From Alphaproteobacteria bacterium (GTDB taxonomy: Bacteria > Pseudomonadota > Alphaproteobacteria > Bin95), in assembly GCA_965205265.1 (NCBI GenBank), contig CBDBGH010000003.1, forward strand, positions 2,784,001 to 2,848,000: a stretch of 64,000 nucleotides of DNA, in the 5' to 3' direction. Shown here one piece after another: positions 59,206-64,000 of this stretch. Position 1 is the stretch's first letter; each line of letters begins with the position of its first letter. The position numbers and the translations under genes are program-made. The notes under the pieces are model-generated. The model had not been told where the DNA came from. It did no database searches and saw nothing but the letters and a program-made list of their open reading frames with translations.

Positions 59206-60405
59206 ATGGACCTCGACTACCGGCCCGACGCCCCCTGCGCGCTCGAAGGCGTGCGCATTCTCGACATTTCCCGGCTGGTCGCCGGCAATGCGATCTCCCA
59301 TGTGCTCGCCGACCACGGCGCGGAGGTCGTCAAGGTCGAGGACCCGGGCGAGGGCGACGCGCTCCGCCACTGGACCGCCGCCGGCGTCGCCTGCAACTGG
59401 AAGGTGTATGCGCGCAACAAGAAGAGCATCTCGCTGAACCTTCGCAGCGAGAAGGGCCGCGAAGTCCTGCTGGAACTCCTGCCCACGGCGCAGGTGCTGG
59501 TGGAGAACTTCAAGGCCGGCGCGCTGGAGCGGATGGGCCTCGGGCCCGACGTGCTGCTAGCGCGCAACCCGAAGCTGGTCGTCGCGCGGGTCAGCGGCTA
59601 CGGCCAGACAGGCCCCTACGCCCACAAGCCGGGCTTCGGCACGCTGGTTGAGGCGATGTCGGGCTTCGCCTACAAGAACGGCTTTCCCGACAAGCCGCCG
59701 GCCCTGCCGCCGCTCGCGCTCGCCGACAATGTCGCCGGGCTCTACGGCGCGTTCGGCGTCATGGTGGCGCTCCGGGAAGTCGAGCTGAAGGGCGGCGAAG
59801 GCCAGGTGATCGACCTTTCCCTGCTTGAGCCGCTGGTGTCCATCCTGGGCCCGGACGCCGCAATCCACAGCGCGACCGGCGAGGCCCCGGCCCGGCTCGG
59901 CAACGCCTCCAACACCACCTCGCCGCGCAATGCCTACCGGACGAAGGACGGCGAGTGGATCGCCATGAGCGGGTCCATGCAGTCCATGGCGATGCGCATT
60001 TTCCGCACCATCGGCCGCGCCGACATGTGCGACGACCCGCGCTACAACACCCAGGCCGCGCGTTCCGCCAACCGCGAGGAGGTGGACGCCATCGTCGGCG
60101 GTTTCATCGCGGAACGCACGCTGGCGGAAGCGATGGAGGTGTTCGAGCGCGAGGGCGTGACGGCGGGGCCGATCTATTCCGCCGGGCAGTTGAAGGAAGA
60201 CCGCCATGCGAAGGAGCGCGGCGTGATCGTCAACCTGCCGGACGACGAACTCGGCCGGCTGCCGATGCACAATGTCATCCCGCGCCTTTCGGGCACGCCG
60301 GGCGCCATCCGCACGCCCGCGCCCGAAATCGGCGCGCATAACGAGGAAATCCTGGGCGCTCTCGGCCTGGACCTCGACCGGCTCAAGGAGGAGGGCGCAT
60401 TATGA
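59206..60405 (+). CDS. CoA-transferase family III (CaiB/BaiF)
   Basis: LEGVRILD, GAEVVKVE, RNKKS, VENF, SGYGQTGPY, LADNVAG. Confidence 0.92.
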   Translation: MDLDYRPDAPCALEGVRILDISRLVAGNAISHVLADHGAEVVKVEDPGEGDALRHWTAAGVACNWKVYARNKKSISLNLRSEKGREVLLELLPTAQVLVENFKAGALERMGLGPDVLLARNPKLVVARVSGYGQTGPYAHKPGFGTLVEAMSGFAYKNGFPDKPPALPPLALADNVAGLYGAFGVMVALREVELKGGEGQVIDLSLLEPLVSILGPDAAIHSATGEAPARLGNASNTTSPRNAYRTKDGEWIAMSGSMQSMAMRIFRTIGRADMCDDPRYNTQAARSANREEVDAIVGGFIAERTLAEAMEVFEREGVTAGPIYSAGQLKEDRHAKERGVIVNLPDDELGRLPMHNVIPRLSGTPGAIRTPAPEIGAHNEEILGALGLDLDRLKEEGAL

Positions 60406-61286
60406 GCCTGCCCGTCTGGCGCTCGCTGCTGTTCATCCCGGCGACGGCGCAGAAATTCATCGAGAAGGGCCCCGGCGTCGGGGCCGACGGGCTGATCCTC
60501 GACCTGGAGGACTCGGTCGCGGCCAATGCCAAGGAGGCCGCCCGCGCCGCCGCGCCGGACATCGTGCGCGGCTTCGCCTCGCAGGGCATCGACACGCTGG
60601 TGCGCATCAACCGGCCCTGGCGGCTCGCGGTGCGCGACCTGGAGGCCGTCGTCATCCCGGAGCTCACCGGCCTGCTCTGCCCGATGGTGGACAGCGCCGC
60701 GCATGTGATCGCGCTGAGCCAGACGGTGGCCGAGCTGGAGACCGAGCGCGGCATCCCGGCGGGGCAGGTCAGGCTCTGCATCGCCGTCGAGACGGCGAAG
60801 GGCTATCTCAACCTCCGCGAGATCGCCCATGCCGACCCGCGCAGCGTCTCGCTGTCGCTCGGCTCGGAGGATTTCGGCCTCTCCATGGGCATGACCGCCG
60901 ACGAGGAGACGCTTTACGGCCTGAAGCAGCAGGTGGTCGCCTGCGCCAGGGAGGCCGGCATCCTGCCGATGGGCTTCGTCGGCTCCATCGCCGAGTTCCG
61001 CGACATAGAGGGTTTCCGGCGCATCGTCCGCCGGTCGAAGAAGATGGGCCTCCAGGGCGCGTCCTGCATCCACCCGAACCAGGTGCGGATCTGCAATGAG
61101 GAGTTCGGCCCGACCGGGGCGGAGGTCGATGAGGCCCGGCGCGTGATAGAGGCCTATGACGAGGCGCTGGCGCGCGGCGAGGGCGCCATCACCGTGGACG
61201 GCAAGATGGTGGACGTGCCGGTCGCCGAGCGCGCCAAGGCCGTGCTCCGCATCGCCGACGCAATCGCGGCCCGGCAGGCCCGCTGA
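60402..61286 (+). CDS. CitE/HpcH-family acyl-CoA lyase
   Basis: RSLLFIP, LDLEDSV, VRIN, ETAKG, GSEDF, CIHPNQV, GKMVDVPV. Confidence 0.9.
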   Translation: MSLPVWRSLLFIPATAQKFIEKGPGVGADGLILDLEDSVAANAKEAARAAAPDIVRGFASQGIDTLVRINRPWRLAVRDLEAVVIPELTGLLCPMVDSAAHVIALSQTVAELETERGIPAGQVRLCIAVETAKGYLNLREIAHADPRSVSLSLGSEDFGLSMGMTADEETLYGLKQQVVACAREAGILPMGFVGSIAEFRDIEGFRRIVRRSKKMGLQGASCIHPNQVRICNEEFGPTGAEVDEARRVIEAYDEALARGEGAITVDGKMVDVPVAERAKAVLRIADAIAARQAR

Positions 61287-61298
61287 CGGTTCCCCCGT

Positions 61299-62627
61299 TC
61301 AGACTCCTGCCGCGAAGAGGGCGAGGCCGGCGAGCGCGGCCATGGCAAGGGTGCGGAATGCGCCCTGACGCAGCATGAAGAGCGCGGCGGCGGCGAGCGC
61401 GGCGAGCGCGAGCGCCTTCAGGTCGAGGCTCGCCGGGTCCGGCAGATAGACCGAGACCGGGCCCGCCTCGGCCCGCGCGCCTGCCGCGAACAGCACGTTG
61501 AGCGCGAACCAGGCCGAGAGGTTGGCGATCACGCCCACAACGGCGGCCGTCACGCCCGCCAGCGCAGCCTGCAGGCCGGGCCGGCCCCTGAGGCGCTCGA
61601 CATGCGGGGCGCCGGCGAAGATGAACAGGAAGCAGGGCGCGAATGTGACCCAGAGCGTCAGCCCTGCGCCCAGCAGCCCCGCAACCAGCGGGTCGAGCCC
61701 GCCGGCCTCGCGCCATGCCGCGAGGAAGCCGACGAATTCCACCACCAGGATGAGCGGCCCCGGCGTCGTCTCCGCGAGCCCGAGCGCATCCAGCATCTCG
61801 CCGGGCGCCAGCCAGCCCCTTGCGGCCACGGCCTCCTGCGCCACCCAGGAGAGCACCGCATAGGCCCCGCCGAAGGTCAGCACCGCCATCTTGGAGAAGA
61901 AGACGGCGATGCCGGAGAACACATGCCCGCCGCCGAGCCAGGCCAGCAGGACCGCCGTCGGCAGCAGCCAGGCCGCGAGCAGGACGAGCGCCACCCTGCC
62001 GGTTCCGGACCGCCTGCCGGCTGGGCCGGGGGGACCGGCCGGCGCCTCCGCCGCCCCAGTCCCGCTTCCGCCGCCGAAGAACGCCCGCGCGCCGCCCAGC
62101 AGCGCCGCCGCGGCGATGACGGCCGGGAAGGGCGCATCGAACAGGAAGAGCGCCGCGAACGCTCCGCAGGCGAGCGCCCAGGCGAAGCCGTCCTTCAGCG
62201 CCCGCGCGCCGATCCTGAGCAGCGCCTCGACGACCAGCGCCAGCACCGCCGCCTTCACGCCGAGAAAGGCCGCCTCGACCGCCGGCAGCCGGCCGTAAAG
62301 CGCATAGACGGCGGCGAGCGCGGCGATGACGACCGCGCCGGGCAGGATGAACAGCAGCCCCGCCGCCAGGCCCCCGCGCATGCCGTGCAGCAGCCAGCCG
62401 GTATAGGTGGCGAGCTGCTGCGCTTCGGGGCCCGGCAGCAGCATGCAGAAATTGAGCGCATGCAGGAAACGCGGCTCGTCGAGCCAGCGCTTCTCCTCCA
62501 CCGCGACGCGGTGCATGAGGGCGATCTGCGCCGCCGGCCCGCCGAAACTGGCGAACCCGATCCGCGTCCAGGCGGCCAGCGCCTCCCGGAACGGAACCGG
62601 CGCGTCCGGCGGCGTCTCCGCGCTCAG
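61299..62627 (-). CDS. chrA: Chromate/oxyanion transporter, CHR family (long chain)
   Basis: SFGGPAAQIALMH, LPGPEAQQ, TFGGAYAV, ETTPGP; conserved N-terminus extends 37 codons upstream of ATG 62516 to a CTG overlapping the upstream stop. Confidence 0.88.
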   Translation of the reverse strand: MSAETPPDAPVPFREALAAWTRIGFASFGGPAAQIALMHRVAVEEKRWLDEPRFLHALNFCMLLPGPEAQQLATYTGWLLHGMRGGLAAGLLFILPGAVVIAALAAVYALYGRLPAVEAAFLGVKAAVLALVVEALLRIGARALKDGFAWALACGAFAALFLFDAPFPAVIAAAALLGGARAFFGGGSGTGAAEAPAGPPGPAGRRSGTGRVALVLLAAWLLPTAVLLAWLGGGHVFSGIAVFFSKMAVLTFGGAYAVLSWVAQEAVAARGWLAPGEMLDALGLAETTPGPLILVVEFVGFLAAWREAGGLDPLVAGLLGAGLTLWVTFAPCFLFIFAGAPHVERLRGRPGLQAALAGVTAAVVGVIANLSAWFALNVLFAAGARAEAGPVSVYLPDPASLDLKALALAALAAAALFMLRQGAFRTLAMAALAGLALFAAGV

Positions 62628-63376
62628 CCGTCCCAGACCTGTTCGGGAAGCGGCAGGCCGCGGAAGTCCTGGGCCCCGAGCGGGCCGTCCGTCTCGATGC
62701 CGAGCATCTCGTGGATCAGCATCAGCTGGCGGACATGCTGGGCCGGATGCCAGGTGGTGCGCTCGAACACCTCATGCAGCGGTTGCGCGCCGTAATAGGT
62801 GTCCACCGGGTCCGGCTTGCGTCCCGACTCCCACCAGCGGGCGACCCGCGCGCGCACATCTTCGCCATAAGCCACGATGTCCGCCACGGTCTGCATGTCG
62901 TCCGGCGGCGGCGCGGTCAGCGCCTCGTAGTTCACCGGTTCGCCGCGCTCCATCGCCGAGATCGTCGCGTCGGCGATGTTGAAGATGTGGTGGAACAGCA
63001 CCCGGTAGGCGCGGTCGCGGCCGGGCAGCTTGTCGCCGAGCCGGTCGTCCGGCACCTGGGCCACATAGCGCGCGGCGGCCGCCAGCACCATGTCGAGCTT
63101 CGCCGCCAGCTCCGGCATGGTGAGCTCCGGCCCCACATCCTCGTCGAGGCCGAGAAACGCCACCACGTCCGAGATCGCCTGCGCGAAGACGAAATCCCTG
63201 CCGCGCGAGACGACGGGGATCGACCGAGCGCCGAGCTCGCGCAACAGGTCCATGCCCGTCGGATGGGTCGTCACGTCGATACTGTCGAACTCGATCCCAC
63301 GGACCGAGAGGAACTCCTTGGTTCTCAGGCAGCTGGTTCAGCCGGGCCGCCAGAAAACCCTGATCGCCTCGCTCAT
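62624..63376 (-). CDS. Glutaredoxin-like (UxxC) plus DinB-like fusion, selenocysteine-containing (U13)
   Basis: GGGGAGG RBS; MSEAIRVFWRPG-TGA(63338-40)-TSCLRTKEFL..GIEFDSIDV..GARSIPVV in frame with the 62624 ORF; DinB-like LFHH...WHPAQHVRQL. Confidence 0.85.
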
Positions 63377-63514
63377 GCGCACGCCTCCCCTGCCCTCGGA
63401 TGACGCATCATAGGCCCATCGCCCGCTTCGGGCCACGGTTTCGACAAGCCGATTGCGGCCCGTGCCGCTCTGTCCTAACCTCGCCTTCGGAGCGGAGAGG
63501 GGGTTCCCAGCGCG

Positions 63515-64000
63515 ATGTCCTTCCCGGCGATGCTCGAAGCGCTCGAGACCGGGCTCAAATGGGTGAACGACCATGTGATGGTGGGCCTCAAATGGCTCGC
63601 CATCGTCCTGCTCGCCCTCATGCTCATCATCGTCGATATCGCCGTGTTCATGCGCTACGTGATGAATGACGCGCTGGCCTGGTCGGAAGAGATCGCCAAG
63701 TTCGTCATGGTGTGGCTCACCTTCTTCGTGGCGCCCATCGGCCTGCGCATGGGCGCGCATGTCGGCATCGAGGTGCTGCTCGGCCAGCTGCGGGGCCGGG
63801 TCCGCCAGTTCCTCATCATGATGATCTTCGCCGGCATCATCGCGCTCATGATCGTGTTCATAAAGGAAGGGGCGTTCATGACCTGGAACGCCCGCATCCA
63901 GCGCGCCTCCACGATCGATATCTCGATCTTCTATGTCTATATCTGCATGCCGGTCGGCAGCTTCGCCGTCGCGATGGTGGCGCTGGAATACATGGTCAAC
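63515..64000 (+). CDS. dctQ: TRAP transporter small permease (runs off the window)
   Basis: Hand translation: VFMRYVMNDALAWSEEIAKFVMVWLTF..R.GAHVGIE..YICMPVG. Confidence 0.88.
   Translation, partial: MSFPAMLEALETGLKWVNDHVMVGLKWLAIVLLALMLIIVDIAVFMRYVMNDALAWSEEIAKFVMVWLTFFVAPIGLRMGAHVGIEVLLGQLRGRVRQFLIMMIFAGIIALMIVFIKEGAFMTWNARIQRASTIDISIFYVYICMPVGSFAVAMVALEYMVN

Follow-up and report, generated by a model that had tools for sequence, protein, structure and literature searches.

Glutaredoxin (Grx) and "Grx-like" selenoproteins with selenocysteine (Sec) in the first position of a UxxC motif have long been known from marine metagenomes (PMC1088965, PMC2398784) and are also described from clostridia. 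According to these papers and to PMC13188914 they have a thioredoxin fold, homologues with cysteine (Cys) in place of Sec and a Sec insertion sequence (SECIS) just past the UGA codon. The same features are found in a gene, here called grx-dinB, which lies directly upstream of the chromate transporter gene chrA in a stretch of 64,000 nucleotides (in the following: the window) from the genome of an uncultured alphaproteobacterial lineage (assembly GCA_965205265.1, contig CBDBGH010000003.1, positions 2,784,001 to 2,848,000). Unlike the known Sec glutaredoxins, the predicted protein Grx-DinB has an additional C-terminal DinB four-helix bundle of ∼170 residues. This bundle with three conserved histidines is shared with the S-transferase-like DinB/YfiT superfamily (BstA/YfiT, mycothiol S-transferase), whose members use low-molecular-weight thiols and include S-transferases for bacillithiol, mycothiol or glutathione that depend on a metal and have a histidine triad (PMC10950700). 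In contrast to this superfamily, Grx-DinB has a fused redox Grx domain with a predicted Sec, and its identity to the solved members is 11–14%. The combination of a Grx-like UxxC domain and DinB is a new architecture within a known kind of selenoprotein. No DinB-containing family is listed among the 119 prokaryotic selenoprotein families in Table 1 of a 2026 review (PMC13188914), and a full-text search joining selenoprotein and DinB found no relevant literature. Short reads of the Grx-DinB family may nevertheless be among the "Grx-like" metagenome sets.

The second gene of the pair codes for a transporter of the CHR family. Usually a chr operon is made up of chrA with chrB/chrC/chrF. The window ChrA has the two Chromate_transp stretches of the known chr determinants and reaches 201.3 bits on TIGR00937 (cut-off 171.7), and it is the single chrA match in this genome. 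In contrast to these determinants, the window chrA has no canonical start codon and is paired with a putative selenoprotein gene. The stop codon of grx-dinB and a CTG in the chrA frame form a four-base overlap, CTGA. Such stop/start overlaps are known from ATGA and TGATG gene pairs, and strict coupling is reported for 13 of the 14 tested pairs (PMC6728339); the start codon is however ATG in that study, which does not cover CTG. A precedent for an effect of selenium downstream of a Sec codon is the fdhF(Sec) gene of Treponema primitia, whose expression past the UGA is governed by selenium via the passage of ribosomes (PMC3892789). There the effect is described within one gene and on transcription elongation, whereas at our locus the proposed target would be a second gene, a transporter. 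We suggest that grx-dinB codes for a selenoprotein, which we hold to be very probable from the comparative sequence data, and that chrA is translated from a CUG codon coupled to the end of grx-dinB. For the two proposals taken together our confidence is moderate.

A first-pass annotation of the window had proposed that codon 13 of grx-dinB, a TGA in the first position of a CxxC-type motif (PG-U-TSC), encodes Sec; this reading is supported by our results, and all coordinates given there are right. The codon stands in the context R-P-G-U-T-S-C and the frame remains open for 237 more codons. When the genome of the window and those of 60 relatives, 61 in total, were searched with the read-through protein, matches were found in 41 genomes, and exactly one in-frame TGA is present in 40 of the 40 full-length matches; two weak extra matches are short and comprise only the Grx part. 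The form with a single in-frame TGA occurs in 17/17 genomes of the window genus, in 10/10 and 9/10 genomes of two sister genera and in four other families. In all 30 loci that were read, an ATG is followed by 12 codons and then by TGA-ACN-AGC/TCC-TGY. As the TGA is at this position in 30/30 loci, and as the CTGA junction is present in 17/17 same-genus loci, the observation is not due to chance. The same column was also inspected in 80 loci from named genome records, where 29 loci have TGA and 51 have TGC or TGT. The titles of the TGA records are nearly all alphaproteobacterial, including Rhodospirillaceae and Acetobacteraceae, with one record from Anaerolineales; nine of these 29 loci are same-genus records already contained in the set of relatives. 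The 51 loci with a Cys codon are mostly from Burkholderiales and Betaproteobacteria. Homologues of the Cys form are full length and read F-W-Q-P-G-C-T-S-C at the motif. Across 96 aligned proteins the residues W9, P11, C13, S15 and C16 are invariant. In a FastTree phylogeny of 101 distinct proteins, from which the Sec/Cys column had been excluded, the Sec and Cys forms are split by one branch with a support of 95.

The genome also has the machinery for Sec insertion, with all matches over the curated cut-offs. The gene selA (531.5 bits) and the adjoining selB (435.2 bits) are found at C3:1327757-1330950, far from the window, selD (277.1 bits) at C3:4511043-4511930, and a tRNA-Sec with the anticodon TCA (ARAGORN, 72.6 bits) at C3:2890233-2890323, ∼42 kb past the end of the window. 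A match to selB is present in 38 of 40 genomes with the TGA form versus 1 of 21 genomes without it; the two TGA-form genomes lacking a selB match are assemblies of 95% and 77% completeness. The selD match lies inside an open frame of 754 aa, which is about twice the usual length of SelD. This frame may encode a fusion such as the NADH-dehydrogenase-SelD form, which is known from aquatic bacteria (PMC2398784). A genome search with TIGR01553 for the formate dehydrogenase alpha subunit yielded neither a match above its cut-off nor an internal stop; as far as this query goes, formate dehydrogenase is thus not what sustains the use of Sec here.

By the sequence 3′ of the TGA the Sec forms fall into two groups, A with 41 distinct sequences including the window and B with nine. 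In group A the codons 24–27 (TCG GTC CGT GGG) have zero synonymous variation among the sequences with the majority residue (36/36, 31/31, 41/41 and 33/33), whereas the adjoining degenerate codons have an entropy of 1–2 bits and the 51 Cys forms vary normally at the codons 24–27. These codons coincide with a hairpin (63308..63290) that has an 8-bp stem, CUCGGUCC/GGAUCGAG, and a GUG loop, with 37 nt between UGA and loop. Its energy is −10.8 kcal/mol (z = −3.3 versus shuffles). Over 37 distinct sequences 94.6% of the cells are paired and three pairs have changes on both sides (seven cells), for example a change from U-A to G-C that goes along with the replacement of Ser by Ala and of Glu by Ala. 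The observed covariation was reached by none of 500 shuffles, and registers slid along the sequence are only 18–60% paired. In group B the frozen codons are 19–24, and the 8-bp hairpin with a GUU loop follows 23 nt past the UGA with −7.5 kcal/mol; the loci concerned are L060-L066, L082, L118 and L127 (e.g., L060:3047-3069). Both hairpins agree with the published bacterial SECIS model and its four constraints (PMC13188914). The grx-dinB family thus has two different placements of the candidate SECIS within one protein family.

The hairpin that the first-pass annotation had pointed to (gag..agg-agtt-cct-ctc) was rejected as SECIS: it is weak, lies over K-E-F-L and has the same letters in the Cys-form homologues. 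The neighbouring hairpin described above takes its place. Two points speak against even this one. With 37 nt its spacing just reaches the maximum that the model allows, and the corresponding stretch of one Cys-form gene (L067:3034-3094, a Burkholderiales record) folds as well, into a 6-bp hairpin with a G-first loop that is equally far from the Cys codon. The latter hairpin may be a chance product of GC-rich DNA or the relic of a former SECIS. The fold alone is therefore not discriminating, and it is the frozen synonymous sites together with the covariation that discriminate. A scan of positions 61000-64000 against Rfam (E ≤ 10) gave only chance-level hits to mir-598 and Cis52 and no known RNA family over the hairpin. 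More distant relatives are represented by short RNA-library contigs that agree with the window over the hairpin region only (63285-63320), and the unmatched flanks of these contigs continue as another group's sequence, which indicates a strong conservation of this stretch at the DNA level.

Grx-DinB scores 37.6 bits on the Pfam glutaredoxin profile (cut-off 22.9) and 28.5 bits on DinB_2 (cut-off 24.8). The Grx sub-families of NCBIfam (NrdH, YruB, Uxx-star and mycoredoxin) all remain below their curated cut-offs, the best score being that of NrdH with 43 bits versus 85.75 (Uxx_star: 29.6 versus 66). An AlphaFold2 model built from the alignment of 96 sequences has a pLDDT of 93.6 and a pTM of 0.90. 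It places the CxxC-type motif after the first strand (strand 5–9, then helix 14–25). The N-terminal domain of the model fits thioredoxin folds such as 3zit (TMt 0.85) and human Grx2 (2fls), and the C-terminal domain fits DinB/YfiT bundles, namely 6iz2 (DR0053, TMt 0.83), 2f22 and 2qe9. Matches of glutathione S-transferases (GST) over the whole length have an rmsd above 10 Å and reflect the shared N-terminal fold only. In the 96-protein alignment H130, H210 and H214 are invariant, a triad that may bind a metal. Judged by its family membership only, Grx-DinB is most likely a thiol-dependent, probably glutathione-dependent, transferase or reductase with a U-x-x-C centre, in which the selenol of U13 would be the attacking group.

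The genomic surroundings of grx-dinB outside the window genus have no common theme. At 52 such loci the 100 flanking ORFs, chosen as the longest on each side and many of them probably spurious, are heterogeneous. In one alphaproteobacterial Sec form an ORF for a gamma-glutamyltranspeptidase (L062:3747-5630) has a few bases in common with the 3′ end of grx-dinB, and in L039 a GST gene is located upstream; both may be connected with glutathione metabolism. MsrA is encoded close to one of the Cys forms. Such neighbours are hints of thiol metabolism without forming a pattern. In a sister genus (L038:2397-3398, L040:148-1467, L043:2397-3602) a membrane protein with a Ferric_reduct transmembrane domain is encoded by the next gene, ∼140 nt downstream of grx-dinB.

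In the window genus chrA follows directly after grx-dinB in 17/17 loci, and all junctions read GGC-TGA, that is CTGA. The chrA ORF is intact in all 17 species with 75–96% identity to the window ChrA. Outside the genus no chrA was found in the 1.5-kb flanks of grx-dinB at 13/13 loci of other genera, nor next to 71/71 further grx-dinB loci (flanks of up to 3 kb, some of them cut by contig ends); the other genera carry chrA elsewhere in the genome, unlinked to grx-dinB. The expectation of a conserved adjacency is thus borne out within the genus (17/17) and fails elsewhere (0/13 and 0/71), an outcome which the first-pass annotation itself had named as refuting and which counts against a selenium switch of the exporter and against a partnership of the two proteins.

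Where does translation of chrA begin? As had been noted before, the conserved N-terminus of ChrA with FGGPAAQ is encoded 5′ of the first ATG, GTG or TTG of the frame, and a CTG stands in the CTGA overlap; both observations are correct. In the following, positions are counted in codons from this CTG, CTG(0). From the upstream stop to FGGP no ATG, GTG or TTG is present in the chrA frame of 15/17 species. A CTG is present at −3 and at 0 in 17/17 species and at +14 to +18 in 7/17. The spacer between the TGA and FGGP is 24, 25, 27, 28 or 29 codons long in the 17 species, and every indel is of whole codons. Over the 29 codons around FGGP the variable columns are distributed as 7, 6 and 21 over the three codon positions, and therefore the stretch 5′ of the first ATG is translated. 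This stretch covers the Pfam profile positions 4–25, with FGGP among them. In one species an in-frame stop is found five codons 5′ of CTG(0), so that the start, or any frameshift site, is confined to a very short window. Orthologues from other genera have a canonical start 22–29 codons ahead of FGGP in 13/13 cases, most commonly an ATG at −26 or −23, and CTG(0) is 24–29 codons ahead of FGGP in the 17 species (27 in the window). CTG(0) agrees with the start codons of all 13 orthologues within 1–5 codons. Since the N-termini of the orthologues align from CTG(0), this codon is the homologous start position. The alignment of the orthologue starts, the indels in multiples of three and the stop five codons upstream make the CTG of the CTGA the best reading, which we infer from sequence only; the start of chrA is probably CTG(0) or else the CTG at −3.

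The positions of the two genes and of their elements are compiled in Table 1. The arrangement is best read as an operon of two genes, both on the minus strand. On inspection, without an exact count, most of the 30 loci read have a purine-rich box like the GGAGG of the window 5′ of the grx-dinB start codon. The operon is flanked by a divergent ORF starting at 63515 (63515-64000, plus strand), by its translation alone a small TRAP-transporter membrane subunit, and by a convergent ORF ending at 61286 (60402-61286, plus strand), by its translation alone HpcH/citrate-lyase-beta-like. A promoter scan found no promoter-like site and three terminator-like sites, none of them at the gene ends.

Table 1. 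Features of the grx-dinB/chrA locus (positions in the window).
Feature	Position	Strand	Remarks
grx-dinB, predicted selenoprotein gene	62624..63376	-	ATG 63376..63374 to TGA 62626..62624; 250 codons + stop
Shine-Dalgarno-like GGAGG	63384..63388	-	8 nt 5′ of the grx-dinB ATG
TGA codon 13 of grx-dinB	63338..63340	-	very probably read as Sec; first residue of UTSC redox motif 63329..63340
Candidate SECIS hairpin	63290..63308	-	loop 63298..63300; frozen codons and covariation
Glutaredoxin-like (thioredoxin-fold) domain, residues 6–57	63206..63361	-	Pfam PF00462, 2.5e-9
DinB_2 four-helix bundle, Pfam residues 128–218	62723..62995	-	PF12867; H130, H210, H214 invariant
CTGA overlap of grx-dinB TGA stop and proposed chrA CTG start	62624..62627	-	17/17 same-genus loci
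Second CTG, 3 codons 5′ of proposed chrA start	62634..62636	-	
chrA, long-chain CHR transporter, from proposed start CTG 62627..62625	61299..62627	-	442 codons + stop
FGGP motif of ChrA	62535..62546	-	27 codons past CTG, 10 codons ahead of first canonical start
First ATG in chrA frame	62514..62516	-	internal conserved Met (ALMHRV, M49); start in public 405-aa calls

Public gene calls suggest other ways to read the locus. The close homologues of Grx-DinB in the public protein collection are all fragments of 178–216 aa without the Grx domain; the window's own protein is on record with 209 aa, and a "DinB family protein" of 234 aa from a relative (NCBI) starts at the CTG of codon 17, just past the UxxC motif. 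Calls of 209, 216 and 234 aa would be in line with TGA13 being a true stop, in which case the first 12 codons would be a leader peptide and the product a DinB fragment of 209–234 aa. The starts of these fragments however differ (ATG at codon 42, GTG at 36, CTG at 17), the Grx domain is conserved as protein across the TGA, homologues with Cys have the full length, genomes with the TGA form tend to have selB and the hairpin is specific to the Sec forms, so that we regard a true stop as highly improbable. Hardly more credible is a Grx-DinB-ChrA fusion, which would arise by programmed −1 frameshifting in the last part of grx-dinB. The chrA frame is indeed the −1 frame, with 5 to 99 open codons 5′ of the CTG, but in one species the window for the shift is only five codons, no slippery heptamer can be read in the last codons (CAG GTC TGG GAC GGC TGA), and there is no fused homologue among the matches of near length, longer lengths not having been searched.

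For ChrA the public calls disagree as well: the protein has 405 aa if the internal ATG is taken as start, 426 aa with CTG +17, and 422 aa in a further call; in the NCBI records P0125, P0147 and P0148 of two relatives CTG starts are used for both the DinB fragment and ChrA. The 405-aa calls and the lack of a canonical start upstream would fit a chrA that is N-terminally truncated or decaying in this genus and starts at ATG 62516. We consider this very unlikely, as the ORF is intact in every species, the part 5′ of the ATG is conserved as protein and holds profile positions with FGGP, and the Met is internal in 13/13 orthologues, which start ∼36 codons earlier. A more substantial alternative, although still an unlikely one in our view, is that the selenoprotein is real and chrA is translated independently, by new ribosomes at a near-cognate CTG at −3, 0 or +16/17, so that ChrA would be free of grx-dinB translation and of selenium beyond ordinary operon polarity. 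Several CTG codons are on offer, NCBI uses the non-conserved CTG +17 in two relatives, a GGGAGG box is present within the N-terminal coding region of chrA, and two of the 17 species have gained a canonical codon in this region (ATG +18 and TTG +4) and could initiate chrA independently. On the other hand, about half of the 17 species lack a CTG at +16/17, the GGGAGG box is just 2 nt from it and thus too close, the whole-codon indels upstream of this CTG place the start nearer to the CTGA, and in the orthologues the start codon is located where CTG(0) stands.

We therefore return to the coupled CUG start, for which we propose the following course of events. UGA13 would be decoded by SelB and tRNA-Sec, guided by the hairpin with the GUG loop. 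In the window genus chrA has lost its canonical start, and its translation would most likely begin at a CUG that has three bases in common with the grx-dinB stop codon UGA. Ribosomes that have just terminated on grx-dinB would reinitiate at this CUG, and ChrA would be a weakly expressed, coupled product of grx-dinB translation. We infer termination–reinitiation at the CUGA as the best reading. Without Sec-tRNA, ribosomes released at UGA13 would never reach the CUGA, and the output of ChrA would fall with the selenium supply.

Apart from the canonical codons gained in two species and the CTG +17 used by NCBI, several findings weigh against this reading. CUG is a poor initiator, and there is no good Shine-Dalgarno box 5′ of CTG(0). 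In both CTG codons (−3 and 0) two of the three bases are forced by the overlapping grx-dinB codons. The free C of each is invariant in 17/17 species, but so are 17 of the 62 comparable four-fold codons, and the conservation of this C is therefore not significant. For the junction RNA, folding is not improved over shuffles (z = −0.18 in the window) and no covariation is seen; the consensus fold puts the CUGA in a stem in which every pair is invariant, and it counts neither for nor against coupling. Contigs from RNA libraries of two studies of related strains span the junction (62425-63364 and 62374-62892). They are compatible with co-transcription and prove neither a single transcript nor an RNA origin, as all four sequencing runs consist of contigs that give bridging only, without transcript ends, strand or level, and may contain DNA.

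A stricter version, in which the synthesis of ChrA is restricted to ribosomes that insert Sec at UGA13 and afterwards terminate on the CUGA, appears improbable to us. It would make the operon a built-in selenium sensor at the level of translation, with an oxyanion exporter (for chromate, selenate or selenite) that is raised under selenium-rich conditions only, which we likewise consider improbable. A change of the Gly250 codon to GGA, GGG or GGT would turn the overlap into a canonical ATGA, GTGA or TTGA, and 0/17 species have one of these. As part of the strict version the retention of GGC in the 17 species would reflect selection that keeps chrA unable to initiate by itself, an unlikely though conceivable explanation; the universal GGC is suggestive, yet GGC is also the favoured Gly codon, which cautions against reading too much into it. 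The proposal of the first-pass annotation that selenium switches on the exporter is not supported by any of our results, the adjacency being confined to one genus and a canonical start being present in 2/17 species. The same applies to the proposed role of Grx-DinB as reduction or thiol-conjugation partner of ChrA: since linkage of the two genes is limited to a single genus, a functional partnership is not supported. A literature search on ChrA, chromate, selenate and efflux found no ChrA-mediated selenate export in titles or abstracts.

For the selenoproteins, Grx-DinB adds an architecture which is missing from the 2026 catalogue and has been clipped by the public gene calls, with at least 50 distinct alphaproteobacterial sequences. 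The junction to chrA would be a natural case of a conserved gene without canonical start that overlaps with a recoded upstream gene. If the coupling were strict, a cell could by this simple means link a transporter to how much of a trace element is available.

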